DNA of 53,239 nucleotides from Nitrospirota bacterium. GTDB lineage: Bacteria > Nitrospirota > UBA9217. Where the stretch lies: contig DASPSR010000050.1 in NCBI GenBank assembly GCA_035623825.1, positions 1 to 53,239 on the forward strand, written 5' to 3'. The translations under genes were made by a program, and so were the position numbers. Shown in pieces: positions 1-24,884 of the stretch (positions are counted from its first letter, which is position 1; every line of letters starts with the position of its first letter). The notes beneath the pieces were generated by a model that ran no database searches, was not told the origin of the DNA, and saw nothing but the letters and a program-made list of their open reading frames with translations.

Positions 1-3000
1 CTCGGCGAGGCCGTCGAGCGACATGCGGATGCCGACCTTCCGAGAACATTGTGGACAGAGGGCGGGGACTCCGCCGTTCATACCGGACAGGGTGGGAATG
101 CCGAGCCCCGAAACGCGCAGGAAAAGACGGTGAAGACCGTGAAGCTTCAAAACCTCGTACCGCCCCTGCGCATCGGATCGGGAGAAACGGACATCCCGGA
201 ATCTTATGTCCAGCGCCTGAAGGAAATACTGTCCGGAATGCAGGGAAAGAACAACGTCCGCCTGCATCTGGTGGGCCATACGGACAATTCGCCGATGTTC
301 GGGGAAGAGAAGCAGAAGTACGGCGACAACACCGCGCTTTCCCGTGAACGGGCCGGTGCCGCCGCCCTGTATCTCCAGAAGGCCCTTGGCCTTCCCCCGG
401 ATTCCGTCACCTACGAGGGCGTTGGCGAATCAGGGCCCGCGGCAAGCAACGCCACCTTCCAGGGCAAGGCAGAGAACCGCCGTGTCGAGGTCGAGGTCTG
501 GTACGACGAGGCCCCTGACAAACTTGCTGATAACGGGGCGCCTGCTCCGGAACGAGTGGACCGCGTGAAGGTCTGCCGCGTCGAGACGTTGTGCAAGCTG
601 AGCTATAAGGAGGGTCATTCCAGACGGGCCAGGATAAGGAACATCGTGCCGCCGCTCCATATGGACGACGATACGGCGGCCATACCCGATGGCTTCATCT
701 CCAATGTGCGCCAGGTGCTCGAAAACCTGAGGACGAAGGAACACGTCGTCGTCAAATTCATAGGTCATACCGACGATCAGCCCCTCTCGGAGCGGAACGA
801 ACGGATCTACGGCGACCCTGTTTCATTGTCCAAGGCCAGGGCACGGCGCGCGGTGCTGGCTGTTAAGGACGCGCTCAAGCTCCCGTCGTCGGCGATCGAC
901 GTCGACGGCAAGGGCGCGGCTGGTCCCATCGGCTCGAACGACACCGCTAAGGGCCGGGCACTTAACCGGCGCATCGAGGTCGAATTCTGGTATGACGACG
1001 AACTGCAGGTCCTGCCGGACGAGCTGCGGCCATGCCCGGAACCGGCCGGAGCCGAGACGGTGACGCGCGTCTATGACGGTCCGTCCGGAAACATAAAGCC
1101 CATCCTGTTCGACCATGGTGAACCGGTGATCACTCCGGAGCAGTTAGAGCACATGCGTCTTAGCCTGGACGAGGTAAAGGACAAGCAGAGGGCGCGCCTC
1201 CGCTTCATCGGCTATACCAACGACGAACGCCTCGAACGACGCACCGCGATGGTGTACGGCGACGACATCGGTCTTTCCACCTCACGCGCGCGGCGCGCCA
1301 TGGACATCGCGGTGAACCGCCTCGGCCTTGCGCCTTCACAGGCCGAGTTCGAGGGCCATGGCTACGTGCAGTCGGACGATGTGGCCAGGACGGGCTTCGT
1401 CGAGTCGGATACGGCCAGGGTCGAGGTGCAGGTCGTTTACGACGAGATGATGGTCAACGACAACACCGACGGTCTGGACATAACGAAGATCACCCGCGAT
1501 GTCACCCCGAAGGACCCGCTTGCCTTGAACCTCATGCGCATAACCGTCGATGGCAAGCCCGTAGACGACCCGGACAAGGGCATCGCCGACATCGAGCGCT
1601 GCACCGACGTGGCACTCTCCAAGGCAAATGTGCAGTTCAAGTTCGACGACCTCTACTTGAAGCCCCGCTTGAACGTTACGGCCTGGCCCAATGCCATCCG
1701 CTACAAGACGGACCCGGACGCAGTACCTCCTGAGAACCTGATGCGGTTCCGCATGTACACGAACTATCAGGCTTTCATCACGAGGTCGGAGGTCCGCATC
1801 TTCGACAAGGACGAGTCCGTCGCCGGCACGCCGATCGCGGTCATCCCCATGGACAAGGACGGGCGTGCTTCGTGGCAGCCGACGTTCCCCGAATACAAGG
1901 CCACCGGGCGCGAGCTCAAGTATGTGCTCAGGGTCTACGACGCTCGAGGGCGCTTCGACGAGACCAAGCCGCTACCCATCTGGATAGTAGACCGGCTGTC
2001 CCCTGATATGCAGGGACGCGATGCCGAGAAGGAGCTCCAGGTCGGTTACGGCGAGAACCACCTCTCGGTCGACAACATCCCGAAGAAGGGCGGTACGATC
2101 AAGGTCTACGGGAGCTCGGTCCCGGCCGAACACGACGTCTTCGTCGCCGGCAGTCCTGTGCCGGTAGGGGACGGGGGAAAGTTCGTCACCGAGGAGATAC
2201 TGCCTTCCGGCACGCATACCGTCGAGGTGGCGATACTCGACAAGGCCGGCAACGGCGAGCTCTTCCTCCGCGACGTTGAGCTTAAAAAGAGCGACTGGTT
2301 CGCCGTCGGCATCGCCGACCTCACTGTTTCACGCGATTACACGACCGGGCCGGGTTCGTCTTTGTACAGCAGCACGACGGTGAATACCAACGGGATGAAC
2401 TATGACGGCCGGCTGGCCTTCTATGCAAAAGGAAAGTTCGGCGACGGCTGGGAGCTGACATCGAGCGCTGACACGGAGGAGGAGAAGTTAACGGACATGT
2501 TCAGGAATTTCACTGACAGGACGCCCAGCGCGCTTTTCAGGAGCATCGATTCCAAGTATTTCTACCCCACCTACGGAGATGACGGCAGCGTGGAGGAGGG
2601 GGCCCCGACCCTGGGCAAGTTCTACGTGAAGGTCAAGAAGGACGAGAGTTACGGCATGTGGGGCGACTTCAAGGTCAATTACGGCGACAACGATCTCGCC
2701 CGTATCGACCGCGGGCTCTACGGCGCGAACCTGCATTACCAGACGCCCGATACGACGAGCTTCGGCGAGAAGCGCTTCTTCCTGGACGGTTACTCAGCAC
2801 AGCCCGGCACGGTCGCGACGCGCGAGGAGTTCCTGGGCACCGGCGGTTCGCTCTATTACCTGCACCATCAGGGCGTCCTGACAGGCTCGGAGAGCGTCAT
2901 TATCGAGGTCCGCGACAAGGATTCGGGCACTGTGATCGCCGAGAAGAGCCTGACGCCCTCCCTCGATTACACCATCGACTACCTGCAGGGGCGCGTCTCC

Positions 3001-5085
3001 CTTCAGCAGCCCCTTTCTCCGACCGTGTCCGACAACATGCTGGTCAATTCCGGCACCGCCGCAGGCAACCGGATGTTTCTGGTCGTCCGCTACGAATACG
3101 TCCCGAGCGCGGGGGACACGAACAGCATGAGCCTGGGCGGACGGACGCATGTGTGGATTTCGGACTACGTGAAACTGGGCGTCACGGTGAACAAGGACGG
3201 CGGCAATGACAACCCGAACGAGCTCGAAGCCTTCGACGTCACCTTGCGGAAGAGCGCCCTTTCCTGGGTCAAGGTGGAGACGTCGAGGAGCAGCGGGCCC
3301 AGCCTGACCTCTCTAACCTCCACCGACGGCGGCATGACGGAAAATCCCACCTGCCCGAGCTTCAGCACGACCGCAAACGGCTTCCCCACGGGAAACCCGG
3401 CCTGCTCCTACTTCGGCAGTCCGGTACCCGTTTCCGCGGGAGCCTACCGGATAGACACCAGCCTGGGCTTTGCTGACGTCTTTGCCGGCGCGTCCGGCCA
3501 GTGGACGATGTACGTGCAGCGCCTGGGCGCCGGCTATTCGGCTCCCGGACTCGAGACTGCCACGGACACCATGCAGTACGGGGGCACATTCAAGGCGCCG
3601 ATCTCCAACAAGGTAGATGTGACCGCCAAGGGCGACAAGACGACCCGCGACCAGGGCCTGGACACGAGTTCTGCCGAGGTCGACCTTAATTATCATATGA
3701 CCGAACACTGGACCTTGAGCCCCGGTGTGCGGATCGACACGCGCCATGACGACTCGCCGGTCGTTCCGCCCACCCAGACGGAAGGCGACCGCACGGACGC
3801 CGCCCTGCGCGCGACGTATGATTCCAAGGAACGCTGGAGCGCGTACGGCTTCGCGCAGGACACCGTTGAGAGGACCGGAGACCGCGAGAACAACGGCCGC
3901 ATCGGTACGGGCGGCGAGTACCGCATCACCGACCGCATCAAATTGAACGGCGAGGTGTCGGACGGCGACTTGGGCGGGGCCGGCAAGTTCGGCATGGAGT
4001 ATCTCTACTCTGACCGCACCAACATGTACCTGAACTACGTGTACGACAACGAGACCCCCGACAACGGGATTCGCGCCGGCAACGCGAGCATCGTCTCCGG
4101 GTTCAAGACCCGCTACTCCGACAGCGCCAGCGTGTATGCAGAGGAAAAGTACACGTACGGCAATGTCCCGACCGGCCTCACCCATGCCGCGGGCGTCGAT
4201 CTCGCGCCCTTCGACCACTGGAACCTGGGCGTCAGCGTTGACTATGGGACGCTCCGCGACCCCATCACCGACGCAACCCTCGTGCGCCATGCCGCGGCAC
4301 TTCGCGTGGGCTACGGCAACAAAGGCCTCGTCTGGGCCAGCGTGTTCGAGTACCGCGTCGACAGGACCGAGGTCATAAACATGAACCCTGACAATACGTT
4401 GAGCGAGAGCACGGTCGACAGGGACAGCTGGCTCGTGAAGAACGATTTGAAGTACCAGATAGACGACTCGTCCCGCGTGATCGGGAAATTCAACCATGCC
4501 GAGAGCCGGAGCGCCGCTGCGTTCTTCGGCGGCGATTACACCGAGGCGATCATCGGTTACGGATACCGGCCTGTGACGAACGACCGCCTGAACACCCTGT
4601 TCAAATACACGTACTTCTACAACGTCCCGACCACCTCACAGGTCAGTGACACAATCACCTATACCTCGTCCGGCATGGTCACGAACATCGCCGCGAATTC
4701 CATCCAGAAGAGCCATATATTGTCACTGGATGCGACCTACGATCTTACACAAAAGTTCAGCATCGGCGGCAAGTACGCCTACCGACTCGGATGGGTCAGC
4801 GAGTCCCTTGAGAATCCCGTTTTCTTTGAGAGCCGGGCCATCCTCTACATTGTCCGCGCCGACTGGCGCTTCATCCATCTCTGGGATGCCATGGTCGAGG
4901 CGCGTCTCTTGGACCTGCCCGACGCGAACGACAAGAAAAGCGGCGTGCTCGCGGCCATATACCGGCAGGTGGGAGCCAACATCAAAGCGGGCGTCGGCTA
5001 CAACTTCAGCGATTTTTCGGACGACCTGACCCAGCTTAACTACAAGCACCAGGGTTTCTTCGTCAACGTCGTCGGCGAGTTTTAG
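1..5085 (+). CDS. Giant outer-membrane protein with multiple OmpA-like peptidoglycan-binding domains and a C-terminal beta-barrel (5'-partial)
   Basis: Frame is open from base 1, so the true start lies upstream. Three OmpA C-terminal-like units (GHTDN..LSRERA..NRRVEV; GHTDD..LSKARA..NRRIEV; degenerate GYTND..LSTSRA..ARVEV). Long amphipathic beta-strand region ending in a BAM-type C-terminal Phe (GFFVNVVGEF). Confidence 0.85.
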   Translation, partial: LGEAVERHADADLPRTLWTEGGDSAVHTGQGGNAEPRNAQEKTVKTVKLQNLVPPLRIGSGETDIPESYVQRLKEILSGMQGKNNVRLHLVGHTDNSPMFGEEKQKYGDNTALSRERAGAAALYLQKALGLPPDSVTYEGVGESGPAASNATFQGKAENRRVEVEVWYDEAPDKLADNGAPAPERVDRVKVCRVETLCKLSYKEGHSRRARIRNIVPPLHMDDDTAAIPDGFISNVRQVLENLRTKEHVVVKFIGHTDDQPLSERNERIYGDPVSLSKARARRAVLAVKDALKLPSSAIDVDGKGAAGPIGSNDTAKGRALNRRIEVEFWYDDELQVLPDELRPCPEPAGAETVTRVYDGPSGNIKPILFDHGEPVITPEQLEHMRLSLDEVKDKQRARLRFIGYTNDERLERRTAMVYGDDIGLSTSRARRAMDIAVNRLGLAPSQAEFEGHGYVQSDDVARTGFVESDTARVEVQVVYDEMMVNDNTDGLDITKITRDVTPKDPLALNLMRITVDGKPVDDPDKGIADIERCTDVALSKANVQFKFDDLYLKPRLNVTAWPNAIRYKTDPDAVPPENLMRFRMYTNYQAFITRSEVRIFDKDESVAGTPIAVIPMDKDGRASWQPTFPEYKATGRELKYVLRVYDARGRFDETKPLPIWIVDRLSPDMQGRDAEKELQVGYGENHLSVDNIPKKGGTIKVYGSSVPAEHDVFVAGSPVPVGDGGKFVTEEILPSGTHTVEVAILDKAGNGELFLRDVELKKSDWFAVGIADLTVSRDYTTGPGSSLYSSTTVNTNGMNYDGRLAFYAKGKFGDGWELTSSADTEEEKLTDMFRNFTDRTPSALFRSIDSKYFYPTYGDDGSVEEGAPTLGKFYVKVKKDESYGMWGDFKVNYGDNDLARIDRGLYGANLHYQTPDTTSFGEKRFFLDGYSAQPGTVATREEFLGTGGSLYYLHHQGVLTGSESVIIEVRDKDSGTVIAEKSLTPSLDYTIDYLQGRVSLQQPLSPTVSDNMLVNSGTAAGNRMFLVVRYEYVPSAGDTNSMSLGGRTHVWISDYVKLGVTVNKDGGNDNPNELEAFDVTLRKSALSWVKVETSRSSGPSLTSLTSTDGGMTENPTCPSFSTTANGFPTGNPACSYFGSPVPVSAGAYRIDTSLGFADVFAGASGQWTMYVQRLGAGYSAPGLETATDTMQYGGTFKAPISNKVDVTAKGDKTTRDQGLDTSSAEVDLNYHMTEHWTLSPGVRIDTRHDDSPVVPPTQTEGDRTDAALRATYDSKERWSAYGFAQDTVERTGDRENNGRIGTGGEYRITDRIKLNGEVSDGDLGGAGKFGMEYLYSDRTNMYLNYVYDNETPDNGIRAGNASIVSGFKTRYSDSASVYAEEKYTYGNVPTGLTHAAGVDLAPFDHWNLGVSVDYGTLRDPITDATLVRHAAALRVGYGNKGLVWASVFEYRVDRTEVINMNPDNTLSESTVDRDSWLVKNDLKYQIDDSSRVIGKFNHAESRSAAAFFGGDYTEAIIGYGYRPVTNDRLNTLFKYTYFYNVPTTSQVSDTITYTSSGMVTNIAANSIQKSHILSLDATYDLTQKFSIGGKYAYRLGWVSESLENPVFFESRAILYIVRADWRFIHLWDAMVEARLLDLPDANDKKSGVLAAIYRQVGANIKAGVGYNFSDFSDDLTQLNYKHQGFFVNVVGEF

Positions 5086-5168
5086 GGATTTTTAGATGTC
5101 CCGGGGCGGTGTCCCGGGCCGTCATGGAGCGATAGAAATATGAATTTCCGGGATGGGAGGATATAAAA

Positions 5169-5684
5169 ATGTTTTACCGGCTGACAGGCGTCGCGTTAAC
5201 GGTTGCAGTGCTGTGTTTCTTCTCCGCCGCATACGGAGCGGGCATCACCAAGGAAGAGTTAAAGGGCCAGGACGAGCAGGTCCAGGACATCAAAAGCGAC
5301 GTCCTATCGATATCCGCGGAGCTCGAAAAGCTCGAGGAGAAGCTTTTGTATCCGTCCAGCACGGAGGTCTCGGTATTCGTTTCCCTGGCGTCCGGCGAAA
5401 CCTTCCGTCTCGACTCGGTGGAGATCCAGATGGACGGAAACCCTGTCGCCCGGCATGTTTACAGCTTCAAGGAGCTCGAAGCCATGAGAAAGGGCGGGGT
5501 TCAGCGCATCTATACCGGCAATATCCGCTCCGGCGATCATGACCTATTCGTTTCCGTTGCCGGAAAAACCGGGGGAGGCTCCGATCTCCGTAAATCCGAA
5601 CTCTTCAAGATCAGCAAGGATGTCGCTCCCAGGATCGTCGAGATATCACTATCAGACAAAGGCATTACCGAGAGAAGCAGGTAA
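5169..5684 (+). CDS. Exported hypothetical protein (signal peptide, coiled coil, beta-sandwich) of the TPR/ExbBD cluster
   Basis: GGGAGG SD upstream of ATG; hydrophobic N-terminus ending AYG/A; stop is 3 nt before the next gene. Confidence 0.75.
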   Translation: MFYRLTGVALTVAVLCFFSAAYGAGITKEELKGQDEQVQDIKSDVLSISAELEKLEEKLLYPSSTEVSVFVSLASGETFRLDSVEIQMDGNPVARHVYSFKELEAMRKGGVQRIYTGNIRSGDHDLFVSVAGKTGGGSDLRKSELFKISKDVAPRIVEISLSDKGITERSR

Positions 5685-5687
5685 ACC

Positions 5688-7574
5688 ATGAAAAGACTGT
5701 TTGCCCCATTGATAATATTGATGTTCGCAGCGTCCGCATCGCCGGCAGAAAAGTCTGCCCCGAAGGACCTGAAGGACCTCTATTTCGGCGAGGCCCTTTA
5801 TCATGCTTATCAAGGGGAGTGGTTCGATGCCGTCTCCAGGCTCGACACAGAGTTGGCCCTTCATTACGGGGTCGATGAGCCCGAGCGGGACACCCTTCAT
5901 TACCATGTTAACCAGGCGGAGTTCGATGTGGGCGACTTTGAGCTCTACTACAGGATGCACCGGAAGGCCGGGCGCGCGATAAGAGCGGTCATCGAGGGGA
6001 ACGTCCCCGCGCCCGTCCGCAACGAGGCCATCTTCCGCCTCGCGCGCATCTATTTCCAAAAAGGACAGCCCAAGGACGCCCAGGAGGCCGTTGACCGCAT
6101 CAAGGGCGCCGTTCCCGAGAAGATCCGGAATGACCTGGCTTTCCTCAAGGCAGAGATCCTCATGGCCAATGGCCGTTTTGACGAGTCAGCCCGCATTTTT
6201 ACGGACATCCAGGACGCTCCGGGCTTTTTAGGATTCAGCTCTTACAATCTCGGAATCGCCCTTATGAGGGACGGGAAGGAGGCCGAGGGCCGGATCTCTC
6301 TCGGCCGCGCCGGCCAGATCAGGAGCGACGACGATGTCACTCTGGCGATCATGGACAAATCCAACCTTGTCCTCGGTGAAAAGCTCCTTTCAGAACAAAA
6401 ATTCACCGCTGCCAAGTATGTCCTGGACAGGGTGCGGCTCACTGGTCCCTTCTCGAACCGTGCGCTCCTCAGTTCAGGATGGGCCGACGCCTCCCTTGAC
6501 AATTATCAAAGCGCACTGGTGCCCTGGACGATACTTTCCGGGCGGGCCGCCACCGATCCTTCCGTAGAAGAGGCCATGCTCGCGGTCCCCTATGCCTATA
6601 TCAAGCTCGGCATCTACAGCAAGGCGGCTCTCCTCTACAGCCAGGCCCTCGAGTCGTTCGGCAGGGAGATCGAGAAACTTACCGCCTCGATAACGAGCAT
6701 TCAGGAAGGCAAATTCCTTAAAGCGCTCTTGCGGGAAGAGCTCAAGCAGGACCCTGACTGGGTCGTAAAGCTGCGAGAGCTTCCAGAGGCTCCCGAGACG
6801 TTCTACCTCATTGACCTCCTTGCTTCCCATGATTTCCAGGAATCGCTCAAGAATTACCTGGACCTCGAGGAGCTCCGCGTGAAGCTTTCCGCCTGGTCTG
6901 GCGACCTCATCGCCTTCAAGGACATCATCCAGAAGCGCAGGGCCTATTACCAGCCGCTCCTCCCGGAGATAGACCGGGAATTCCGCCGGCTCGACACTCT
7001 CATGCGGCTCAGGCTTTCACAACGCGACAGCATAGAAAAAAGGCTTCATGCCATGCTGACGGCGCCCCGTCCAGAACAGCTTGAAACCGCCGACGAGCGC
7101 GTCACGATAGATCGGCTGAACCAGATGGAACGGAAGCTTGCCGCCATGCCGGACGCATCCGGCGACGACCTTGCACGGATCAAGCGCCTGCGTGGCGTGC
7201 TTTACTGGAACATGTATACCGAGTACGACCACCGTTTGACCGAAGCTTTCAGGCATCTCCACGACCTGAACAGCGAAATCGACCGGATGAGAACGGAATA
7301 CTCCTCCTTTGTCCGCACCCGTCAGGCCGCCACGCAAAGCTACGAGGGATACGACGACGTCATCCGCGCTTTAAGCGAAAGGGCCGCTTCCGCGCGGAAG
7401 CACGTGGAGGAACTGATGTCCCGGCAGGGGAAGATCCTCGAGACCCTGGCCGTTACCGAACTCACCAGGAGGCGCGACCGTCTCGAAAAATTCCAGGTAG
7501 ACGCGCGATTTGCCATGGCGGACAGCTACGACCGCGCGAGGCGCGCCCAGGACAACAAGAGGGCCGAGCAATGA
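5688..7574 (+). CDS. Periplasmic tetratricopeptide-repeat protein (GltC-like)
   Basis: Signal peptide MKRLFAPLIILMFAASASPA; TPR-like helices (EAIFRLARIYFQKG, SSYNLGIALMRDG, EAMLAVPYAYIKLG); coiled-coil C-terminal half. Confidence 0.8.
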   Translation: MKRLFAPLIILMFAASASPAEKSAPKDLKDLYFGEALYHAYQGEWFDAVSRLDTELALHYGVDEPERDTLHYHVNQAEFDVGDFELYYRMHRKAGRAIRAVIEGNVPAPVRNEAIFRLARIYFQKGQPKDAQEAVDRIKGAVPEKIRNDLAFLKAEILMANGRFDESARIFTDIQDAPGFLGFSSYNLGIALMRDGKEAEGRISLGRAGQIRSDDDVTLAIMDKSNLVLGEKLLSEQKFTAAKYVLDRVRLTGPFSNRALLSSGWADASLDNYQSALVPWTILSGRAATDPSVEEAMLAVPYAYIKLGIYSKAALLYSQALESFGREIEKLTASITSIQEGKFLKALLREELKQDPDWVVKLRELPEAPETFYLIDLLASHDFQESLKNYLDLEELRVKLSAWSGDLIAFKDIIQKRRAYYQPLLPEIDREFRRLDTLMRLRLSQRDSIEKRLHAMLTAPRPEQLETADERVTIDRLNQMERKLAAMPDASGDDLARIKRLRGVLYWNMYTEYDHRLTEAFRHLHDLNSEIDRMRTEYSSFVRTRQAATQSYEGYDDVIRALSERAASARKHVEELMSRQGKILETLAVTELTRRRDRLEKFQVDARFAMADSYDRARRAQDNKRAEQ

Positions 7575-10500
7575 TGACAACAGACCGTATTCTGAGTGCT
7601 CTATTCGCTCTTTCGCTTCTCCTTTTCTCCTGCCAGACGCCCGGAGCAAAGGACACGTTGGCGGGTCTCCGCGGCGCGCATGTCGATATCAAGGAAGAGC
7701 GGATAGATGGCGGGCTCGACAAGGCCATGGAAGGTTACCGGCGTTTCCTCGAAGACACCCCGGGATCCTCCGCGCTCAAGCCCGAGGCCCTGCGCCGCCT
7801 CGCGGACCTGAAGATCGAAAAGGAATACGGGCTTCTTCCCGACGGCGCAGCAGCAAGGCGGCGGAATCCCGCCTCCGCACCTCATGCCCAGTCGGCAAAC
7901 TCCGCTGTTTCCGCACAACATGAATCGCAGGCCGATTTCGAGAAAAGGGCGGGGGCACTGGAGGGAGAGGGCGCGCCTGACTCATCGAACCTTGAACGCC
8001 CCGGCGCCCGCGAGGCCATCGCGCTCTATCAAAGACTTCTTACCGAGTATCCCCATTACGAGCACAATGACCAGGCGCTCTATCAGATGTCCCGGGCCTA
8101 CGAGGAACTGGGCCAGGCCGAGCTTGCCATGAAGGTCATGGAACGGATGGTGCGGGACTATCCCAAATGCCAGTACATGGACGAAGTGCAGTTCCGGCGC
8201 GCCGAATACTTCTTTACCCGGAAGCGCTACCTGGACGCCGAGGACGCATACCAGAGCGTCGTCCAAATAGGCGACAGATCGTACTTTTACCAGCTTGCCC
8301 TGTACAAGCTCGGATGGACATTCTACAAGCAGGAGCTTTACGATGAAGCGCTTGACAGGTACATAGCGCTCCTCGATTACAAGGTGAAGACGGGCTACGA
8401 CTTCGCACAGACCAAAGACAAGATGGAGAAAAAACGCATCGACGATACATTCAGGGTCATAAGCCTTTGCTTTTCCAATTTGGGAGGGCCCAAAACCGCC
8501 GCGGAATACTTCGCGAAACATGGCGCTAAAAGCTACGAGGACGGCATCTACAGCAATCTCGGGGAATTTTACTTCGACAAGCGCCGTTATGCCGACGCAG
8601 CCGCGACCTACAACGCCTTCGTGAGCCAAAATCCCTTCCACAGGAAAGCGCCCGATTTCCAGATGAGGGTGATAGACATCGATATCGCCGGAGGGTTCCC
8701 CAGCCTGGTCATCGACGCGAAAAAGGAGTTCTCCAGGACGTATGGGCTCAAAGCCCCGTACTGGAAGCATTATAAACCGGAAGACCGTCCGGAGGTCCTT
8801 TCCTGGCTCAAGACGAACCTCGCCGACCTGGCCAAGCATTACCACTCGCTGTACCAGAACAAAGAGGAGGCAAAGAACAAGGACAGGAACTTCGAGGAGG
8901 CCATGCACTGGTACAGGGAGTTCCTCGCCTCCTTCCCGAAGGACCAGGACTCACCGGCTGTCAATTATCTTTTGGCGGACCTCCTCATGGAGAACCGCGC
9001 ATTCGACCAGGCGGCAGTGGAGTACGAAAAGACATCCTATGACTACCCGAGCCATGAAAAATCCGCCCAGGCAGGCTACGCAGCCGTCTACGCCTACCGC
9101 CAAGAGCTGGCCGGCATCGCCCCGGAGCAAAAGGACCAGGTAAGGCGTAAGGCCGTAGCAAGCTCGCTCAAGTTCTCCGCGATCTATCCAGAGCACGAGA
9201 AGGCGGCCATCGTCCTCGGGGCCGCCGCGGATGACCTGTACGGAATGCGGGACTACGAGGAGGCTCTCGCCTCCGCGAGCAAGCTCATCCTTTCCTACCC
9301 CAAGGCTGATGCCGATGTCGTCAGGGGGGCCTATGTCGTGGTCGGCCACTCAACCTACGAGCTTCACCGCTACGGCGAAGCCGAGGCCGCCTATGCGAAG
9401 GTGCTTTCGCTCCTCCCGGCCGGAGATAAAAGCAGGGACGGCATAAGCGACAACCTCGCCGCCGCGATCTACAAGCAGGGCGAGCAGGCGAGCGCTGTCA
9501 AGGATTACCGGGCAGCTGCGGACAATTTCCTGCGTGTGGGGCGCATGGCACCCGCCTCCAAGATCAGGGTCAACGCAGAGTACGACGCCGCGGCCGCGCT
9601 GATCGAGATCAAGGACTGGAAAACGGCTGCATCCGTGCTCGCCGGGTTCCGCGAGAAATTCCCCGGGAGCGATCTCGCTCCAGAGGTGACCAGGAAGATC
9701 GCATACGTCTATCGTGAGGACGGAAAGCTCAGCCTCGCGGCCGGCGAATATGAACGCATCGAGGGAGAGTCAAAGGATGAAGACGTTCGGCGCGAGTCTC
9801 TCCTCACTGCGGCGGACCTATACGATAAGGCCGGCAACCGGGACCGCACGCTTTCGGCATACCGGCGCTATGTGGATCATTTCCCGCATCCGGCCGAACC
9901 CAACATGGAAGCGCGCGCCAAGATCGCCGAAATTTTGAAGAGGAACGATACGGGCGGCTATCTCGCCGAGCTCAAAGCGATGGTGGCCGTCGACGCGGGA
10001 GCCGGCGCCGAGCGTACGCCCCGTACGCGCTATCTGGCCGCTACCTCCGCATTGGTGCTGGCCGAGCAGACCTTCGGCCAGTTCCAAGCGATAAAGCTGG
10101 CAGAGCCGTTCAAGGCAAACCTCGAGAAGAAAAAGGAATTGATGAAGGTCGCAACCCAGGGGTTCACCAAGCTCCTGGATTACGAGGTCGGCCTTGTCAC
10201 CTCGGCCTCGACATTCTATCTAGCCGAGATCTACGCGGATTTCAGCCGTGACCTGAAAGAGTCCGAACGACCCAAGAACCTGAGCCCCCTGGAGCGGGAA
10301 GAATACGAACTCGCGATCGACGACCAGGCCTACCCATTCGAGGAGAAGGCCATCGCAACGCATAAGAGCAATCTCGACCTTATTTCTCGCGGCATTTACA
10401 ACGAGTGGATCGAAAAGAGCCTGCAGAAGCTTGCCAAAACCGTTCCCGCCCGCTACGACAAGACGGAAGAAGAGAGCGCAGTCATGACATCGCCGGACAC

Positions 10501-10741
10501 GTACCTCTTCGCGATCGAGCGTCAGGAGGAGCCTGCCCCCCTGGCGTCCAAAGGGGCGGTCGATGCCGATGAATCGAAGCTGGAACTATCGCCTTCGGGG
10601 ACCCAGGGATCTACCACGGCTGAGCCGAAGCCTGAAGCGAAACAGGCGGAGTCCAAAATAACCGTAAAGAACGTTCACCCGGTGGAAAGTGCGCAGCACA
10701 ACGCTGTCAAGGATGTACCGAACGATAAGTCTCCTGATTGA
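7571..10741 (+). CDS. Large TPR lipoprotein (GltD/AgmU-like)
   Basis: Lipobox LLLFSC; many TPR motifs (DQALYQMSRAYEELG, EVQFRRAEYFF, ALYKLGWTFYKQ); C-terminal YELAIDDQAYPFEEKAI..YNEWIEKS motif; ATGA overlap with the upstream gene. Confidence 0.8.
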   Translation: MMTTDRILSALFALSLLLFSCQTPGAKDTLAGLRGAHVDIKEERIDGGLDKAMEGYRRFLEDTPGSSALKPEALRRLADLKIEKEYGLLPDGAAARRRNPASAPHAQSANSAVSAQHESQADFEKRAGALEGEGAPDSSNLERPGAREAIALYQRLLTEYPHYEHNDQALYQMSRAYEELGQAELAMKVMERMVRDYPKCQYMDEVQFRRAEYFFTRKRYLDAEDAYQSVVQIGDRSYFYQLALYKLGWTFYKQELYDEALDRYIALLDYKVKTGYDFAQTKDKMEKKRIDDTFRVISLCFSNLGGPKTAAEYFAKHGAKSYEDGIYSNLGEFYFDKRRYADAAATYNAFVSQNPFHRKAPDFQMRVIDIDIAGGFPSLVIDAKKEFSRTYGLKAPYWKHYKPEDRPEVLSWLKTNLADLAKHYHSLYQNKEEAKNKDRNFEEAMHWYREFLASFPKDQDSPAVNYLLADLLMENRAFDQAAVEYEKTSYDYPSHEKSAQAGYAAVYAYRQELAGIAPEQKDQVRRKAVASSLKFSAIYPEHEKAAIVLGAAADDLYGMRDYEEALASASKLILSYPKADADVVRGAYVVVGHSTYELHRYGEAEAAYAKVLSLLPAGDKSRDGISDNLAAAIYKQGEQASAVKDYRAAADNFLRVGRMAPASKIRVNAEYDAAAALIEIKDWKTAASVLAGFREKFPGSDLAPEVTRKIAYVYREDGKLSLAAGEYERIEGESKDEDVRRESLLTAADLYDKAGNRDRTLSAYRRYVDHFPHPAEPNMEARAKIAEILKRNDTGGYLAELKAMVAVDAGAGAERTPRTRYLAATSALVLAEQTFGQFQAIKLAEPFKANLEKKKELMKVATQGFTKLLDYEVGLVTSASTFYLAEIYADFSRDLKESERPKNLSPLEREEYELAIDDQAYPFEEKAIATHKSNLDLISRGIYNEWIEKSLQKLAKTVPARYDKTEEESAVMTSPDTYLFAIERQEEPAPLASKGAVDADESKLELSPSGTQGSTTAEPKPEAKQAESKITVKNVHPVESAQHNAVKDVPNDKSPD

Positions 10742-10757
10742 TATCCAGGTTGACGGT

Positions 10758-11459
10758 ATGGAGAACAGTGCGATGAATGTCAGAAATGGATTTCTTGCAA
10801 GGATGTTCACATTCCAAGGCATATCCGGAACATTGTCTCTGGCCGTGATGACCATGGTCCTTGCCGGTTGCGCAGCCGGAGCGAAGGTAGAGCCTTTGCC
10901 CGTTGAAACAGCTCCTCTCAAGGGGCCATCAGTGGAAAGGCTCTCCGACGGACGGCAGGGATTCGTCATCCATGAAGACCCGGTCATGAGCGCAGAATCC
11001 CGCGAAGAATTCGACCACGCCGTCTCGCTCCTAAGCGGAGGGAAAAACGACAAGGCCATCGAGCTCTTCGCCAAGGTGATCGAGAAATCGCCGGGGGTCA
11101 CGGCCCCGCACATCGACATCGCGGTAGCCTACATGCGGGCCGGAAAGACGGGGCCCGCAGAAGAGCACTTGAAAGCCGCACTGGACCTTTTCCCCGGCCA
11201 TCCGGTCGCTAGCAATGAGTACGGGCTGCTTCTCCGCAGGGCCGGGCGTTTCAAAGAGTCCAGGGAAGTCTACCAAAAGTCGATCGCACGGTTCCCGGAA
11301 TACCTGCCGGTCCATAAGAATCTCGGCATCCTCTGCGACCTGTATATGAACGACCCGGAATGCGCCCTTCATGAGTTTGAGACCTATGCAGCCGGCGCGC
11401 CTGCGGACACGCAGGTCAAAACCTGGATCGCTGAACTTAAGATACGGCTCAAACGTTAG
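10758..11459 (+). CDS. TPR lipoprotein (GltE/AglT-like)
   Basis: Lipobox VLAGC; TPRs (PHIDIAVAYMRAG, ASNEYGLLLRRAG, VHKNLGILCDLY). Start uncertain (10758 or 10773). Confidence 0.75.
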   Translation: MENSAMNVRNGFLARMFTFQGISGTLSLAVMTMVLAGCAAGAKVEPLPVETAPLKGPSVERLSDGRQGFVIHEDPVMSAESREEFDHAVSLLSGGKNDKAIELFAKVIEKSPGVTAPHIDIAVAYMRAGKTGPAEEHLKAALDLFPGHPVASNEYGLLLRRAGRFKESREVYQKSIARFPEYLPVHKNLGILCDLYMNDPECALHEFETYAAGAPADTQVKTWIAELKIRLKR

Positions 11460-11478
11460 ATGAAAGGGAGGAGAGAAC

Positions 11479-11808
11479 ATGTATCGGAACGCGCTTCTTT
11501 GTCTTTTATTGCTTCTTCTGCCGGCGGGCCTTGCCGTTGCCGGAGACAACGCACCGACGGCCAAGGGCGCTTCGAAGCCCGTTTTGGATAAGAAGGAAGC
11601 GAAGACGGAAGGGGCCAAGGAGCTTTCCGGCATGTCCATCGTCGGGAACGACGAGGCCCCTAAGGCCCTCTACATAGTGCCATGGAAAGGCTCCGAGATA
11701 GGCAAAGGAACCGTTTTCGACATGGTGCTCGATGCTTCCGACACGCCCGTTGACCGCGACGTGTTCAAGCGTCAACTGGAGTTCTACGAACAAAGCACCA
11801 AGAAATGA
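11479..11808 (+). CDS. Small exported protein, GltF/CglF-like
   Basis: SD GGAGGAG; signal peptide; motif GMSIVGNDEAPKALYIVPWK, which I recognise from the small protein found between TPR and ExbB genes in such clusters. Confidence 0.7.
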   Translation: MYRNALLCLLLLLLPAGLAVAGDNAPTAKGASKPVLDKKEAKTEGAKELSGMSIVGNDEAPKALYIVPWKGSEIGKGTVFDMVLDASDTPVDRDVFKRQLEFYEQSTKK

Positions 11809-11844
11809 CATCGCTGTCAGAACAGCGAAAAAGGAGGAAGGACA

Positions 11845-12543
11845 ATGTTTATCGTAAGGTTTTTTCAGAAGGGCGGTTTGTTCATGTTCCCCATTTTGTT
11901 CGTGCTGCTGGTCGGCGTGGTCATCGCGATCGAGCGCTGGTTACACCTGAAGCGCGTCCGGGAGGCGAATGCCAAAACGTGGGACAGCATCTATCCCGCG
12001 CTGGAAACGGGTGAGTTCGAAAAGGCCCGGGAAATTGCCAACAAGGACAAATCATCCATGGCGCAGATGCTGGGCATGGGCCTGGCCAGGCAGGGCGCGG
12101 TCAGGCGCCGAGAGGACATAGAGATCGCCATGGAGGAGAGCATGATGGAGATAGTTCCCCAACTGGAGAAGCGCACGCCATACCTCGCGCTCTTGTCCAA
12201 CATCGCCACCCTCTTCGGCCTCCTGGGCACGATCATGGGCCTCATCATGGCCTTCGCCGCAGTGGCCACCGCAAGCCCTGCCGAAAAGGCGGCACTGCTT
12301 GCCGCCAGCATTTCAGAGGCGATGAACTGCACCGCCTTCGGCCTGATGTCAGCGATCCCGCTGCTCCTGCTCCATGCGAGGCTCACGACGACCACGGGCC
12401 AGATAGTTAACAGCCTGGAGATGGCATCGGTCAAGTCCTTGAACGCCATATCCAACTTCACCAAGCGCCAGTTCGAGAGGACCCCGTCCTTGCCGGGCGC
12501 CAATGTGACAGGAGCCGACCATGTTCAGACGATATCGAAATAA
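11845..12543 (+). CDS. MotA/TolQ/ExbB proton channel protein (AglR-like)
   Basis: Three TM segments; ATLFGLLGTIMGLI and ISEAMNCTAFGL motifs; SD AGGAGG. Confidence 0.92.
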   Translation: MFIVRFFQKGGLFMFPILFVLLVGVVIAIERWLHLKRVREANAKTWDSIYPALETGEFEKAREIANKDKSSMAQMLGMGLARQGAVRRREDIEIAMEESMMEIVPQLEKRTPYLALLSNIATLFGLLGTIMGLIMAFAAVATASPAEKAALLAASISEAMNCTAFGLMSAIPLLLLHARLTTTTGQIVNSLEMASVKSLNAISNFTKRQFERTPSLPGANVTGADHVQTISK

Positions 12544-13036
12544 GTTGAACACGGAAAAAAAATCGGATTTCGATACCGACATCATGCATTTGATCAACCT
12601 GACGCCGATGATGGACATCCTTACCGTTTTGGTGGTCTTTCTGCTCATCACCGCCGTCTTTATCAGCATAACGATCGAGGAGCTCTGCGTCCCGACAGTA
12701 GCCGGAGCGGAGGCACGTGCCTTGCCGAATTTCGCCATCGAGGTGATCGTCCGCAAGGCGGGACTTGAGATCTCCAACGGTTCGGCGGTTTCCGACAGGA
12801 TACCCAAGAAGGACGACAAGTATGATATTGGGGAGCTTTCCAAGACGCTCCTTCGTCTCAAAGCCCAGTACCCGGGAAAGCAGGACGCCTCGGTCCTGAT
12901 GGAGCCGGACATCAAGTACGACCACCTTATCGAGATCATGGACGCAGTACGAAGCACCGAAGTACTGCCTGAAGGTGGTGGAGAGGCCAGAAAGATCGAC
13001 CTCTTCCCGAAGATATCCATAGGAGACGCGCCATGA
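12521..13036 (+). CDS. ExbD/TolR family protein (AglQ-like)
   Basis: INLTPMMDILTVLVVFLL with the essential TM Asp; IKYDHLIEIMDAVR. Confidence 0.9.
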   Translation: MFRRYRNKLNTEKKSDFDTDIMHLINLTPMMDILTVLVVFLLITAVFISITIEELCVPTVAGAEARALPNFAIEVIVRKAGLEISNGSAVSDRIPKKDDKYDIGELSKTLLRLKAQYPGKQDASVLMEPDIKYDHLIEIMDAVRSTEVLPEGGGEARKIDLFPKISIGDAP

Positions 13037-13530
13037 AGGAAACAAGACGCATAAAACGGATGGAGCGGAACAACAGGAAGGGCGTGATCAGGGGACTCGG
13101 CATAAACCTCATCCCCATGATGGACGTCCTCACCGTCCTGGTGTTCTTCCTGCTTTTTCACTCGTTCAACAGCACCCTGCCCGACGCGCAGATTGCCCTT
13201 CCCGATTCCTCTGTCCCGACCAGGCCGAGGGAAACGGTTGCGATCGTGGTGAGCCCTGAATCGGTGTTGGTCCAGGGCGAAGCAGTCGTCAGCACCCAGA
13301 AACTCCTTGATAACGGCGTAGTTGTGGTCGAGGAACTTAGGGACCGGCTGGAGCAGATTGGTCACGGCATCATCGGTGCCGGTGCCAAGGCTGCCGCTGA
13401 CACCATGGAGGTCACGCTTCTTGCCGATAAGACGATACCGTTCAAGGTGCTTAAGAAAATAATGTCAACCTGCACGGCCTGCGGATACGGAAGGATCTCC
13501 CTTGCCGTGGCAGAAAAGGCGGGAAAATGA
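13033..13530 (+). CDS. ExbD/TolR family protein (AglS-like)
   Basis: INLIPMMDVLTVLVFFLL; ADKTIPFKVLKKIMSTC; ATGA overlaps on both sides. Confidence 0.9.
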   Translation: MKETRRIKRMERNNRKGVIRGLGINLIPMMDVLTVLVFFLLFHSFNSTLPDAQIALPDSSVPTRPRETVAIVVSPESVLVQGEAVVSTQKLLDNGVVVVEELRDRLEQIGHGIIGAGAKAAADTMEVTLLADKTIPFKVLKKIMSTCTACGYGRISLAVAEKAGK

Positions 13531-14915
13531 CTACAGCCATTTTAGAAGAGGAACTGACCCAGATTGACGTCCAGATAGAGAAGGCCGTCAAAAGGCGCGC
13601 CGCCTTGGAAGAGGAGCTTCGGGTCGTTGACGCCGAGCTGGAAACATTCGCCACCGAGAGGCAGCGGTTCGACGCGCTTAAGAAAGTACTCTCCGCTCTG
13701 GACAAGCTTGGTGAACTGAAGGCGGGCGACCTCTTTTGGGCAGGGCTCGCCGAACAGCAAAATGCGGATGTGCACATAAAGCGCGCGAAGAACCGGGTCG
13801 CGCTCTTCGAAGGCGATATAAGCGGGATCCTTGAAAAGAAGGCGACCCTCCAGGGCGAGATAAACCGGTGTCTTGACGAACTGGCTTACCTCCAGGAGGA
13901 AGTGCGAGACGCCTACGAGCGCGATGAACGGCGTGAGGAGGAATACTTCGTAGACCGCGAGATATCTCCCGTTCCCAATCACACGATGGCAATGCCGGGG
14001 GACAAGAATTCCGAGAGCGAACGGCGGTTCCGCAGGTCATTGCTTCTCGCATTGTTGTTCTATATCCTCTTCGGTGCCGTCATACGCCTCTGGGTGCTGC
14101 CGCCGCCGGAACGCCCCGTCGTGACCGAGGTGCCCGAACGTCTGGTCTCCATGCTCCGGAGAGAGCCGCCGAAGCCAGAGCGGGAGCCCGAACAGCGCAA
14201 AGAGGAAAGGAAGCCCGAAAAGAACCAGCAGAAGGTGCCGGAGAAACAGCATGAAGAACAGCCGAAGGTGGTCGCTTCGGAAACGGAGACCGCACGCAGT
14301 AAAGCGGAGAGCACAGGGGTCCTGGCATTCAAGGAATCCTTCAAGGGCATGCTGGACGAAGCTCCCGCCGCGCGTCTCGGAACCGAGGCGCGGATCAACA
14401 ACCAGGCGGTCGCGGCCGCAGGCCAGGCCCGTCCAAACCGGTCTCTTGTTGCCATGCAGTCGGCGGGCGGTTATAGCGGCGGCATCAGCAACTCCGGGAT
14501 CAGCCGCGATATCGGCAGCGGAAACGGCAGCCGCATCGGCGGCGTTGGCTTCAGCCGTGTGGAAAGCACCGTAGCCGGGCAGGCGGGAGAGTCGAGGCCG
14601 CTTTCCTCCGGGCCGGGACCGGGCCGTACCGATGAAGAGATCCAGATAGTGTTCGACAGATACAAGGCTGCGCTCTACCGGCTCTATAACGCGGAACTCA
14701 GGAAGGATCCGACCCTTCGCGGCAAGATGATCTTGAGGATCACCATCGAGCCGGGCGGTGAAGTCTCATCTTGCACCGTTCAGTCGAACGACCTCGCCTC
14801 GGAAGATCTGGTTTCACAGGTGGTCGAGCGTGTCAAGAAGTTCAACTTCGGGCCGAAGGAGAAAGTGTCCAGGATCACCATTCTGTACCCGATTGATTTC
14901 CTGCCTGCGGTTTAG
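13527..14915 (+). CDS. TonB-like energy transducer with AgmX/PglI-type C-terminal domain (GltG-like)
   Basis: Cytoplasmic coiled coil, single TM (SLLLALLFYILFGAVI), Pro/Glu/Lys-rich linker, Gly-rich region and TonB-C-like end (LYNAELRKDPTLRGKMILRITIEPGGEV..YPIDFLP). Confidence 0.85.
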   Translation: MTTAILEEELTQIDVQIEKAVKRRAALEEELRVVDAELETFATERQRFDALKKVLSALDKLGELKAGDLFWAGLAEQQNADVHIKRAKNRVALFEGDISGILEKKATLQGEINRCLDELAYLQEEVRDAYERDERREEEYFVDREISPVPNHTMAMPGDKNSESERRFRRSLLLALLFYILFGAVIRLWVLPPPERPVVTEVPERLVSMLRREPPKPEREPEQRKEERKPEKNQQKVPEKQHEEQPKVVASETETARSKAESTGVLAFKESFKGMLDEAPAARLGTEARINNQAVAAAGQARPNRSLVAMQSAGGYSGGISNSGISRDIGSGNGSRIGGVGFSRVESTVAGQAGESRPLSSGPGPGRTDEEIQIVFDRYKAALYRLYNAELRKDPTLRGKMILRITIEPGGEVSSCTVQSNDLASEDLVSQVVERVKKFNFGPKEKVSRITILYPIDFLPAV

Positions 14916-16726: not shown

Positions 16727-18562
16727 ATGCTGAAGAAGATCCTTACATATGGCATGTGCATGGTCCTTCTTCTGGAAGGCCTCGCCTTCGCCGAAGAGTT
16801 TCGCTTCTCTCCCCGCACCAACAAGGCGAACCTGATCCGGTGGAGGAGCTGGGGCCATGAGATGTTCGACGAAGCGCAGAAAAAACACAAGCTTATCCTG
16901 CTGTCTCTCAGCGCTGTTTGGTGCCACTGGTGCCATATAATGGATGAGACCACATATTCTGATCCGGAGCTGATCGATTTCATCAACAACAACGTCATCC
17001 CGGTCAGGGTGGATGCCGACATGCGTCCCGATATCGACAGCCTGTATAACCAGGGAGGCTGGCCGAGCACGGTCATCCTGACGCCGGAAGGAGAGGTGAT
17101 CTCCGGAGGCAATTATCTCCCGCCCGAGGAGCTGATCGGCAGGCTCAAGAGGGCCTCGGACCTTTACGCCACAGACAGGGATAAAATAAGAAGGAGGGTC
17201 GAGCAGGCAGAGATGATGCGCGCCTTGCGGCGGCGGGAAAGCGCAGGCGCTCCGGGCCGAGAGGACATCGAGAACATCATTGGGATCCTGAGGGGTTCAT
17301 TTGATGCGAAGTATGGCGGCTTCGGGAGCGGCCAGAAGTTCCCGAGTCCCGAGACCCTGGAATTTCTTCTTTCCGTATACGCGAAAGGCCGGTACAGGGA
17401 TGTCGAGGGGATTATCACGACTACCCTTGATCGCATGGCAGATGGCCAGATCCACGACAAGACCGAAGGCGGTTTCTTCCGGTATGCCACGAAGCCCGAC
17501 TGGTCAGCGCCTCATTATGAGAAGATGCTCGACGTGAATGCCGGGCTGATCAAAAACTATGCAGAGGCGTACCAGGTGTTCGGGCGGAAGGAGTATTTGA
17601 GCGTTGTCCTGGGTAGCACGCAGTATGTGCAAAAAAATCTCTTCGACAAAAAAAGCGGCGCCTTCTACGGCAGCCAGGACGCCGACGAGTCCTATTATGA
17701 AGCGCTCGACCGAAAGGGGATGAAGGCCCCCGCAGTTGACACAACATCCTACTCGGACTCATCATCCCTCATGATCAGCGCACTGATTGCCACATACGGT
17801 GCGACAGCGGACAAGCAGTATCTCGACATGGCAATCAAGGGAATGGATTTCCTGTTAGCGAACCTGTATTCCGGCAATGACGGAATGTTCCATTATTATC
17901 GCGATGGAACGCATCATCTCAAGGGGCTTCTTTCAGACAATGCTCTGGCTGGGTCAGCTTTGCTCGATCTGTACAATGCGACGGGTGAAGAGCGTTATCT
18001 GAACGCCGCGAAAGCGAATGGTCAGTTTATCATCGGTCAATTCTACGATAAGGATAAGGAAAGGTTCCGCCCGTCTCTCGATACGTCGCTGAGTAAGCCC
18101 CTGACCGCGGGCATCCTATCGGACGTGAACGAGAACCTTGCCAATTTTCGGGCGATCCGTTTTTTGAGCAGGCTTGCATTTGTCGGTGAATTCAAGGGGC
18201 TGAAAGAGACCAGCGACGCTGCTGCTGCGGCTATTGCCGGTGAGTATCGGAGATTCACGACCCAGGCAGGTATCTATGGAACAGCCTTGCTCTGGTTCCT
18301 GGGAGACCCTGTCGTGATCACGGTTCTTGCTGAGAGAGAAGATGCCAGGAATTATCTGTCGGCGATCAATAGCGTCTATACCCCGGAAAAGGTGGTGAGG
18401 GTATTGTCGTTCTCGAGCGATGCGCAGGAAATAAAAGACCGGGGATATCCGTCGGCGGAGGCAGTCTATCTCTGTGTTGGCAAGAGGTGCTCGATGCCGA
18501 TCAATAAACCTGAAAACGTGACTTCTGGATTGAAACACTTTATGGATACATTGCATGATTAG
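16727..18562 (+). CDS. DUF255/YyaL (SSP411-like) thioredoxin-domain protein with signal peptide
   Basis: WCHWCHIMDETTY, GGWPST, GGFG..KFP, GGFFRYA and PHYEKML motifs. Confidence 0.9.
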   Translation: MLKKILTYGMCMVLLLEGLAFAEEFRFSPRTNKANLIRWRSWGHEMFDEAQKKHKLILLSLSAVWCHWCHIMDETTYSDPELIDFINNNVIPVRVDADMRPDIDSLYNQGGWPSTVILTPEGEVISGGNYLPPEELIGRLKRASDLYATDRDKIRRRVEQAEMMRALRRRESAGAPGREDIENIIGILRGSFDAKYGGFGSGQKFPSPETLEFLLSVYAKGRYRDVEGIITTTLDRMADGQIHDKTEGGFFRYATKPDWSAPHYEKMLDVNAGLIKNYAEAYQVFGRKEYLSVVLGSTQYVQKNLFDKKSGAFYGSQDADESYYEALDRKGMKAPAVDTTSYSDSSSLMISALIATYGATADKQYLDMAIKGMDFLLANLYSGNDGMFHYYRDGTHHLKGLLSDNALAGSALLDLYNATGEERYLNAAKANGQFIIGQFYDKDKERFRPSLDTSLSKPLTAGILSDVNENLANFRAIRFLSRLAFVGEFKGLKETSDAAAAAIAGEYRRFTTQAGIYGTALLWFLGDPVVITVLAEREDARNYLSAINSVYTPEKVVRVLSFSSDAQEIKDRGYPSAEAVYLCVGKRCSMPINKPENVTSGLKHFMDTLHD

Positions 18563-18686
18563 AGAGAAAGCAAACAGAGGATTAGTGCCTGTTTCATGAT
18601 ATATTTTAGGGCAGGGAAGTGCTTCCTGTAAGCAGACGCATATTAACGATCTGATATGTCTTGCTTTATTTAGCTGGAGGTGGGTG

Positions 18687-19601: not shown

Positions 19602-19812
19602 AGAACTACAGTCTTGGTGGTTTTGAGCAATAGTAAAAATGCACTGCATCCCGACATTGAAGCTCTCATTTGGAGCAGCAGTGAATGCTTCATTCAGAAA
19701 TCCTCAATTCACATCCCGGAAATCATGTTGGAAGTCTTGATATGATCGGATGCAGTTCTTGCACTCGAATCAGTTTCTCGATTATCGAACTCTACCGTGC
19801 ATACGATATATC

Positions 19813-19841: not shown

Positions 19842-19847
19842 GTTCCC

Positions 19848-20476: not shown

Positions 20477-20483
20477 AGAGGTT

Positions 20484-24865: not shown

Positions 24866-24884
24866 GAAAGGAGTTCGGCTGTCC

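Follow-up and report, generated by a model that had tools for sequence, protein, structure and literature searches.

A giant OmpA-beta-barrel protein beside an Agl-Glt-type core in a Nitrospirota bacterium: a candidate system for adhesin export and tethering

The stretch of DNA that we analysed (hereafter the window; 53,239 nucleotides (nt), contig DASPSR010000050.1 of assembly GCA_035623825.1, Nitrospirota bacterium) begins with ten close-packed genes, all on the + strand in 1..14915, with intergenic gaps of -23 to +83 nt according to the list of open reading frames (ORFs) and the alignment. The first encodes the visible part of a giant protein with OmpA-like domains and a predicted 40-stranded outer-membrane beta-barrel, and the others include a proton motor and proteins with tetratricopeptide repeats (TPR). 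A first-pass annotation had described a close-packed envelope-machine operon in this region, and all the genes that it listed were found; the arrangement recurs in relatives and is not due to chance. The giant protein and the operon had been correctly listed, but the gene for a 171-amino-acid (aa) protein at 5169-5684, the 40-strand size of the barrel and its fusion to an adhesin had been missed. We propose that the barrel belongs to a system that exports an adhesin and tethers it to the cell, a reading that, taken alone, we regard as likely; for the wider one, in which this module and an Agl-Glt core are two modules of one mobile cassette, the chances appear evenly balanced. All evidence for an adhesin-barrel-core system is computational, and comprises gene content, the fusion, the strand count, docking in the lumen of a relative's barrel, and co-inheritance.

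The giant ORF (1..5085, + strand) is open at its 5' end and shows 1694 aa. As the first-pass annotation had claimed, it combines OmpA domains with a beta-barrel: three OmpA stretches were detected by Pfam (130..1440, E 1.6e-24), corresponding to OmpA-C-like domains with a predicted peptidoglycan-binding function, and a barrel forms the C-terminus. Domains 1 and 2 keep the motif GHTD...LSxxRA, and in domain 3 the Asp is replaced by Asn (motifs at residues 91, 254 and 403); two of the three domains thus keep both of the residues that we take to bind peptidoglycan. The beta-rich domains that follow (1483..2292; AlphaFold2 strands at model residues 50-267), presumably periplasmic, are also kept in stand-alone barrels. 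An AlphaFold2 model of residues 495-1694, built on an alignment of 68 sequences (pLDDT 82, pTM 0.81), predicts a single 40-stranded barrel at 2293..5082. By DSSP count, 40 amphipathic alternating strands begin at residue 765 and end with the terminal Phe. One side has short turns; the other, outer side has long loops, among them the conserved loop YPTYGDD (residues 855-868) and an inserted beta-domain (residues ~938-1033). Because porins align over model residues 271-1200, the first and last strands meet and the barrel is closed. A two-barrel architecture was rejected, given the uniformly short linkers and the alignment of porins across the first and last strands.

A sequence search of the PDB with the barrel region returned 0 matches at E 10, and sequence searches gave no match between the barrel and SprA or any other solved protein. 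The fold matches were generic, since SprA, FimD, porins and TonB receptors were tied (Z 12.9-14.4, rmsd 10.7-14.4); SprA was the top Foldseek row, yet its TM of 0.18 was level with that of other barrels. A supposed likeness of the inserted domain to SprA received no support from sequence searches. SprA, with 36 strands, has been called the largest known barrel (10.64898/2026.03.07.710327; for this and the other papers cited, our statements refer to the accessible parts of each text), and a line from the same work, valid for 8-18 strands, extrapolates to a radius of ~38 A for the barrel studied here. A 40-strand family, 002, comprising 1,194 proteins, was predicted from contact maps by Solan 2021 (PMC8346858). 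It shares with the window barrel the single 40-stranded architecture, the closing contact, the long insertions and the extra domains, and the window barrel, compared by description, probably belongs to it. In contrast to the case presented here, the accessible text assigns family 002 no function, partner or gene context. Searches of the ESM Atlas placed both the barrel and the 171-aa protein in unnamed clusters only.

The first-pass annotation had also supposed that a surface protein is encoded upstream of the window. We evaluated this in 28 related loci (numbered with the prefix L), obtained from 242 pattern matches in a scan with the 171-aa protein; the nearest relatives are Nitrospirota bins. 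Of the 19 loci extending far enough, 18 encode a DUF11/isopeptide adhesin upstream, in agreement with that supposition, the exception being L011, which lies beside a run of N. The region upstream of the OmpA domains contains tandem DUF11 and isopeptide-type domains (4-6 DUF11 stretches; TIGR04226 70-107 bits vs 30), and the same 18 of 19 loci carry before the barrel a conserved terminal cassette, consisting of a CnaB/SdrD-B-like domain and a degenerate OmpA-like domain. Among near relatives the CnaB cassette is 64-91% identical. When it was modelled in isolation, its CnaB half was poorly predicted (pLDDT 44-63) and fold searches gave moderate scores (best Z 7.4; SdrD B 6.0; OmpA-like 5.1-6.0). 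DUF11 (CLIPPER) domains build isopeptide-stabilised stalks of fibrillar adhesins (PMC12617251). Judged by its domains, the upstream part in the relatives is an adhesin of this DUF11/CLIPPER type, with predicted surface location and predicted Lys-Asn bonds. The known CLIPPER adhesins share the tandem DUF11 stalk, and one of them, from Acinetobacter, carries an OmpA-like anchor at its end; unlike the system described here, that paper names no export barrel (0 occurrences of 'barrel' and 'secretion').

Adhesin and barrel form one ORF in the six of these loci that are nearest to the window (74-85% identity); it exceeds 3,186 aa in five of them and is cut by a contig end in all six. In twelve more distant loci they are two adjacent genes, some with frameshifts. 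Because the window begins at the fusion junction of the six closest loci, its giant ORF is very probably fused as well, and would represent the second half of an adhesin-barrel fusion of >3,300 aa. A frameshift artefact was ruled out as the source of the fusion by its presence in six loci and by the same layout in long members of the family. The barrel family comprises 3088 clusters (50% identity) at E 0.001; among the 150 listed, 20 representatives exceed 2000 aa, and 19 of these 20 have the CnaB cassette before the barrel. The occurrence of this cassette before the barrel in genome loci, in the plasmid loci presented below and in the long representatives therefore indicates repeated fusion.

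Several loci showed variants of this arrangement. In a Vibrio campbellii record (L033, 8362-24176) the CnaB domain is the last one of the adhesin, and the barrel is followed by an OmpA-like lipoprotein encoded separately. Insertion sequence (IS) elements cut the adhesin in a Paracoccus plasmid (L038, 5123-5734), leaving the terminal cassette alone before an intact barrel gene. In an Acinetobacter haemolyticus plasmid (L043, 3407-13476), a 2008-aa 'DUF11' protein matches only the barrel's first strands and insert; this remote variant stands among DUF11 and OmpA genes and may represent a 38-strand sister family.

Evidence for a physical association came from the prediction of a complex between the barrel of a relative, L013 (894 aa), and the CnaB domain of its own adhesin (105 aa), with three controls. 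This pair scored 0.65, and the best of the controls 0.00. The mark applied is reached by 116 of 157 solved complexes and by 2 of 215 mismatched pairs, and is roughly valid with our own alignments. The runs agree in at least 95% of contacts, with a partner pLDDT of at least 79. Strands 1-3 and 32-40 make contact through alternating residues that face inward and are mostly charged, and the loop YPTFGDD contributes as well, a distribution that locates the docking site on the lumen wall at the barrel seam. Mean conservation is 0.74 at the contact residues against 0.50 for the rest; the window barrel shares 53 of the 72, compared with 507 of 894 residues overall. Its own lumen residues include D773, R804, K1591 and R1635 (window numbering). 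The C-terminal strand of CnaB touches the periplasmic end of strand 34, as would suit a chain going on into OmpA-like domains in the periplasm. Sequence and fold searches found no similar solved complex. The model supports the idea that the adhesin's CnaB domain binds in the barrel lumen in the relative's pair.

These results can be assembled into the following mechanism. The Sec pathway would export a fibrillar adhesin made of many DUF11/CLIPPER domains, isopeptide-locked once folded. The barrel would be inserted by the barrel assembly machinery (BAM), and the folded adhesin would pass through it to the outside. Domains locked after folding need a wide pore, and a 40-stranded barrel therefore suits this cargo. 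The last CnaB-like domain would dock in the lumen at the barrel seam and act both as recognition signal and as stopper, and the OmpA-like domains behind it would stay in the periplasm and grip peptidoglycan, so that the stalk would run from the wall through the pore to the exterior. Adhesin and barrel would be supplied as two genes or as one chain, the latter very probably in the window.

A different role for the barrel is that of a surface anchor only, in which case the adhesin would leave the cell otherwise, for example by type II secretion, and CnaB would plug the barrel from outside; such an arrangement would resemble that of proteins bearing a C-terminal domain (CTD) of type B on PorP barrels. 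The model displays docking and not passage, type II secretion genes occur near L029, and in Vibrio and Ralstonia the adhesin stops after its CnaB domain, all of which suits an anchor. However, in the fused chains OmpA domains stand between CnaB and strand 1, so that a stalk lying outside could be joined to them only through the pore; in addition, 40 strands far exceed what an anchor needs. We consider this explanation improbable.

The association of the barrel with the neighbouring genes was conserved in the related loci. The nine genes from position 5169 on are complete in 15 of the 28 loci; in most of the remaining ones a contig end interrupts the set. In 26 of 28 the 171-aa gene is immediately preceded by the barrel gene (one locus lacks upstream DNA, and L025 lacks the barrel), in 25 of 28 the GltC-like gene follows the 171-aa gene (two loci end there, and L011 lacks it), and of the 25 loci that extend to either side of it, 23 have both. 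Gene order is kept across four phyla, with barrel identity down to 52%. Pairwise identities of the barrel and of the core proteins correlate at 0.86-0.95 (14-16 loci each), and the barrel and GltC-like trees (16 rows) have in common three fully supported groups: a 5-row group, an 8-row Nitrospirota group and an 8-row mixed-phylum group. The last includes Nitrospirota, Thermodesulfobacteriota, Gemmatimonadota and Pseudomonadota, although bins may be mis-assigned. Linkage and congruent trees favour a joint function of barrel and core in this clade without proving contact. In the operon, family scans detected no other outer-membrane barrel, which counts for coupling between the motor and this one.

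A search of 72,556 plasmids gave a different picture, with 21 full-length barrel copies among 26 matching records. In the 14 of these 21 loci that we examined, the CnaB cassette is directly upstream in every case; it mostly ends a protein of 1,858-6,517 aa, and once is an IS-truncated remnant. Core genes were absent from the flanks of all 14 (20 kb for six, 6 kb for eight); from this we conclude that the barrel needs no motor nearby. GltC-like and GltG-like proteins had no match in the same 72,556 plasmids, host chromosomes being outside the search.

It is therefore necessary to consider whether barrel and core are neighbours and not partners, that is, whether the adhesin-barrel pair is self-sufficient and the core, with a separate envelope job and another outer-membrane partner, simply shares an island with it. 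The motorless plasmid pairs, the core on its own in L025, and the description of the core as a stand-alone cluster by Luciano and Wartel agree with this view, as does base composition. The operon has a GC of 57-62%, against mostly 45-55% in the remaining window, and a GC3 of 0.68-0.82, against 0.45-0.77 (mostly <0.68) in 14 other window genes; because of this higher GC3, the operon is probably an acquired block. Against mere neighbourhood stand the conservation of order over four phyla down to 52% barrel identity, the short spacing from the barrel to the next gene (83 nt) and the lack of an alternative barrel in the operon. We regard this alternative as rather unlikely, although it is the strongest of those considered.

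Besides the plasmid results, several observations weigh against the two-module reading. The 28 loci are near kin (50-88%) because they were found by exact peptide patterns, and congruent trees are equally explained by plain co-transfer. In L025 the core is preceded by unrelated genes and there is no barrel, and L011 has the barrel and the 171-aa gene without the core, beside its run of N. The window starts at the fusion junction, which leaves the adhesin itself outside it, and the adhesin's terminal OmpA-like domain is weakly assigned (hhalign probability 31%, Z 5-6). The docking model would represent anchoring at best and not translocation, and the partner that it predicts for the barrel is the adhesin. 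The first-pass interpretation is borne out in part, its view of the barrel as the motor's outer-membrane component being plausible at most. Finally, the transmembrane (TM) segment of the GltG-like protein lacks the TonB/TolA His motif in all 15 aligned copies.

The nine genes downstream of the barrel are all on the + strand, and the signal peptides and lipoboxes of their products were judged by eye. The first encodes the exported 171-aa protein (5169..5684), which always directly precedes the GltC-like gene; its relatives are often automatically misnamed 'AraC family transcriptional regulator' despite the signal peptide and without an AraC match. The GltC-slot protein (5688..7574, 628 aa) has TPR and a Sec-type signal, and 7100 relatives were found among 8000 scored; its counterpart Gura_3077 (629 aa) is listed by Luciano as a homologue of MXAN_2541. 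The GltD-slot TPR lipoprotein (7571..10741, 1056 aa, lipobox LFSC) corresponds to Gura_3076 (1108 aa). In L013 (12126-15875) the GltD-like protein has a LysM-type insertion at ~residues 925-977 that is not present in the window protein. The GltE-slot TPR lipoprotein (10773..11459, ~228 aa, lipobox LAGC) corresponds to Gura_3075 (240 aa). A -53 overlap before this third TPR gene vanishes if translation begins at ATG 10773, a position that has a GGAG 9 nt before it and agrees with the starts in L005 and L016. Next comes an exported 109-aa protein (11479..11808), which by alignment and by the locus-tag gap at Gura_3074 occupies the slot of Luciano's 'additional gene'. Neither it nor the 171-aa protein matched a Pfam or NCBIfam family. 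Its alignment revealed a conserved strand-like motif and a C-terminal helix-like motif, and by analogy with the modelled GltF of PMC11761067 it is possibly a GltF counterpart.

The motor is encoded by the genes for the AglR-slot MotA/TolQ/ExbB proton-channel subunit (11845..12543, 232 aa, Pfam 5e-24), in which both channel Thr positions align with TolQ and whose scores stay far below the TolQ and ExbB cut-offs, and for the ExbD-like AglQ-slot (12521..13036, 171 aa, Pfam 5e-14) and AglS-slot (13033..13530, 165 aa, Pfam 1e-15) subunits. Both ExbD-like proteins retain the TM Asp in NLxPMMD, as the first-pass annotation had noted. The operon closes with the GltG-slot transducer (13527..14915, 462 aa), which has a cytoplasmic, coiled-coil-like N-terminus of ~170 aa, a single TM (172-190), a Pro/Glu/Lys linker and a TonB-C-like domain. 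This protein had been called a TonB-C protein; its AgmX/PglI domain was recognised (NF033768, 60.5 bits, cut-off 40), but Pfam TonB_C remained at 21.9 bits, below its cut-off of 24.6. Against individual models, GltJ (5e-9) and GltG (1.2e-7, residues 215-455) outranked TonB (8e-5) and TolA (6e-3). In three loci (L007 20124, L015 20226, L020 15638) a second aglR-like gene starts directly after gltG, which suggests a second motor set in that subgroup. Promoter and terminator scans of the operon stayed at chance level.

Gene order, sizes and the GltG-type domain match the Agl-Glt-type core of non-gliders, and because of this the motor and TPR genes are assigned to that known core and not to Tol-Pal, TonB uptake or a gliding machine. 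In Geobacter and in beta/gamma-proteobacteria, Luciano 2011 (PMC3169522) described this core (group B) as a cluster gltC-D-E-(extra gene)-aglR-Q-S-gltG without a known function, with no alphaproteobacterium among the carriers in Table S2, and the first-pass statement that the core occurs in non-gliders with its function unresolved agrees with this work. The order and lengths found here match Gura_3077-3070, GM21_0438-0445 and Mpe_A1224-1231 (628/1056/~228/109/232/171/165/462 aa here; 629/1108/240/(untabulated)/211/166/166/484 aa in G. uraniireducens). The gltC/D/E/F-aglR/Q/S-gltG order originally proposed stands in order and size, except that the GltF label of the 109-aa protein lacks sequence support. 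In the accessible description, unlike in the operon studied here, neither a 171-aa gene nor a barrel or adhesin is mentioned upstream of the core. An attempt to assign the TPR and 109-aa proteins directly to Myxococcus families by NCBIfam did not succeed: the GltE-slot protein matched the GltE model weakly (E 1.3e-4, 21 bits, cut-off 225), the GltC model did not match the window protein and matched the L025 protein weakly (E 0.022), and no GltD or GltF model appeared in the profile search.

Tol-Pal was rejected as the identity of the core (TolQ 71.9 bits vs a cut-off of 221; TolA 16 vs 59; neither TolB nor Pal encoded in the operon), and so was TonB uptake (TonB_C below its cut-off; no plugged 22-strand receptor in the operon). 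The first-pass preference for Agl/Glt over Tol-Pal or TonB is consistent with these values. As a control, the exbB-exbD-tonB-receptor set elsewhere in the window (26707-30902) gave 84.5 bits for TonB_C together with plug and barrel matches, and is just 23-29% identical to the operon motor, over short stretches.

The core has been regarded as a stand-alone or possibly secretory machine (PMC3858216; 10.1101/2020.07.22.216333), and a TonB-like pulling model has been proposed (PMC5349195); the accessible text of PMC12204202 leaves Glt unmentioned. Applied to the adhesin system, the proton motor (R, Q, S) would exert its pull via the GltG-like protein, acting on a scaffold of TPR proteins (D, E, C) together with the 109- and 171-aa proteins. 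This scaffold would reach the barrel as GltC reaches GltA/B/H in Myxococcus, and the energy could drive, gate, tension or release the adhesin. Direct coupling of motor to barrel is plausible, although we place it slightly short of an even chance. The Myxococcus Agl-Glt and Agl-Nfs machines have in common with this operon an AglRQS-like motor, a GltG-like transducer and TPR proteins, and their modular payload idea would also fit here (PMC3858216; PMC11761067). In contrast, no GltA/B/H/K/I/J-like gene or CglB was found in the operon, and no FHA domain matched the 462-aa GltG-like protein; the small GltA/B/H barrels would be replaced by a single huge barrel, predicted to be wall-anchored.

Two further roles for the motor were weighed. 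[quoted passage not shown] Motor, transducer, TPR scaffold, barrel and adhesin are the parts list of both gliding systems, but the three OmpA domains would be expected to hold the barrel on the wall, the GltG-like protein lacks FHA and the operon lacks the accessory genes; this wall anchoring and these missing genes make gliding very unlikely. Moreover, the core was found insufficient for gliding (Luciano 2011). The other role, scarcely less unlikely, is import, with the motor energising a giant receptor and the DUF11 protein capturing substrate for uptake. RefSeq labels 7 of the 21 full-length plasmid matches 'TonB-dependent receptor', exbB-exbD-tonB follows one plasmid barrel, and uptake was proposed for a Fibrobacter cluster headed by an OmpA-family gene (PMC6851124). 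Nevertheless, Pfam detected no plug or TonB-receptor match on the giant, whereas the true receptor of the same window matches both; the lumen site is predicted to be occupied by the adhesin's own domain, and 13 of the 14 plasmid loci have no Ton genes in their flanks.

The export-and-tether system shares features with established pathways. As in the T9SS (SprA/Sov, and type B CTD on PorP), a very large barrel would handle folded cargo bearing a C-terminal Ig-like signal, with a proton motor and a TPR lipoprotein nearby; unlike here, SprA has 36 strands and the motor belongs to another family, and sequence and fold comparisons gave no specific match. In type V secretion (two-partner Vb, fused Vd) the cargo gene lies beside the barrel or is fused to it, as here, and in LapA-type retained adhesins a periplasmic domain holds the cargo in the pore. 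In contrast to these, Pfam gave no Omp85/POTRA or autotransporter match on the giants and no RTX or ABC component was found; the barrel is also much larger and retention would occur at the C-terminus. Open-access literature yielded no link of the barrel to DUF11 adhesins or to the core, although closed literature may hold one. The adhesin-barrel system is apparently undescribed, the motor core being already known. More tentatively, it may be a new secretion system in which the largest single-chain barrel exports pre-folded, isopeptide-locked adhesins of 1,900-6,500 aa by means of a C-terminal CnaB signal, energised in this clade by Agl-Glt.

The system would provide a cargo and a mechanism for a widespread barrel family predicted in 2021 without function and often mislabelled as TonB-dependent receptor, an export route, so far missing, for many Gram-negative DUF11 adhesins, and a candidate payload for the Agl-Glt core, the role of which has been in question since 2011, with secretion merely guessed (10.1101/2020.07.22.216333). 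If the core does energise this system, the ancestral job of the gliding motor would be to drive or control adhesin export through the barrel, as a convergent counterpart of the T9SS. The module is open to testing through its stand-alone copies, which occur on plasmids of cultured Sinorhizobium, Sulfitobacter and Phyllobacterium.

The remaining window carries other genes. After the operon, 16727-21401 encodes thioredoxin-domain YyaL-like, thioredoxin-reductase-like, FtrD-like and AhpC/TSA proteins. Positions 24476-25922 contain copC/copD-like genes, followed at 25999-30902 by NikR and the canonical exbB-exbD-tonB set with its TonB-dependent receptor; the region 25999-30902 is probably a metal-uptake locus. 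Finally, 40259-43684 encodes a 1141-aa AsmA/YhdP-family protein, unrelated to the adhesin-barrel finding.

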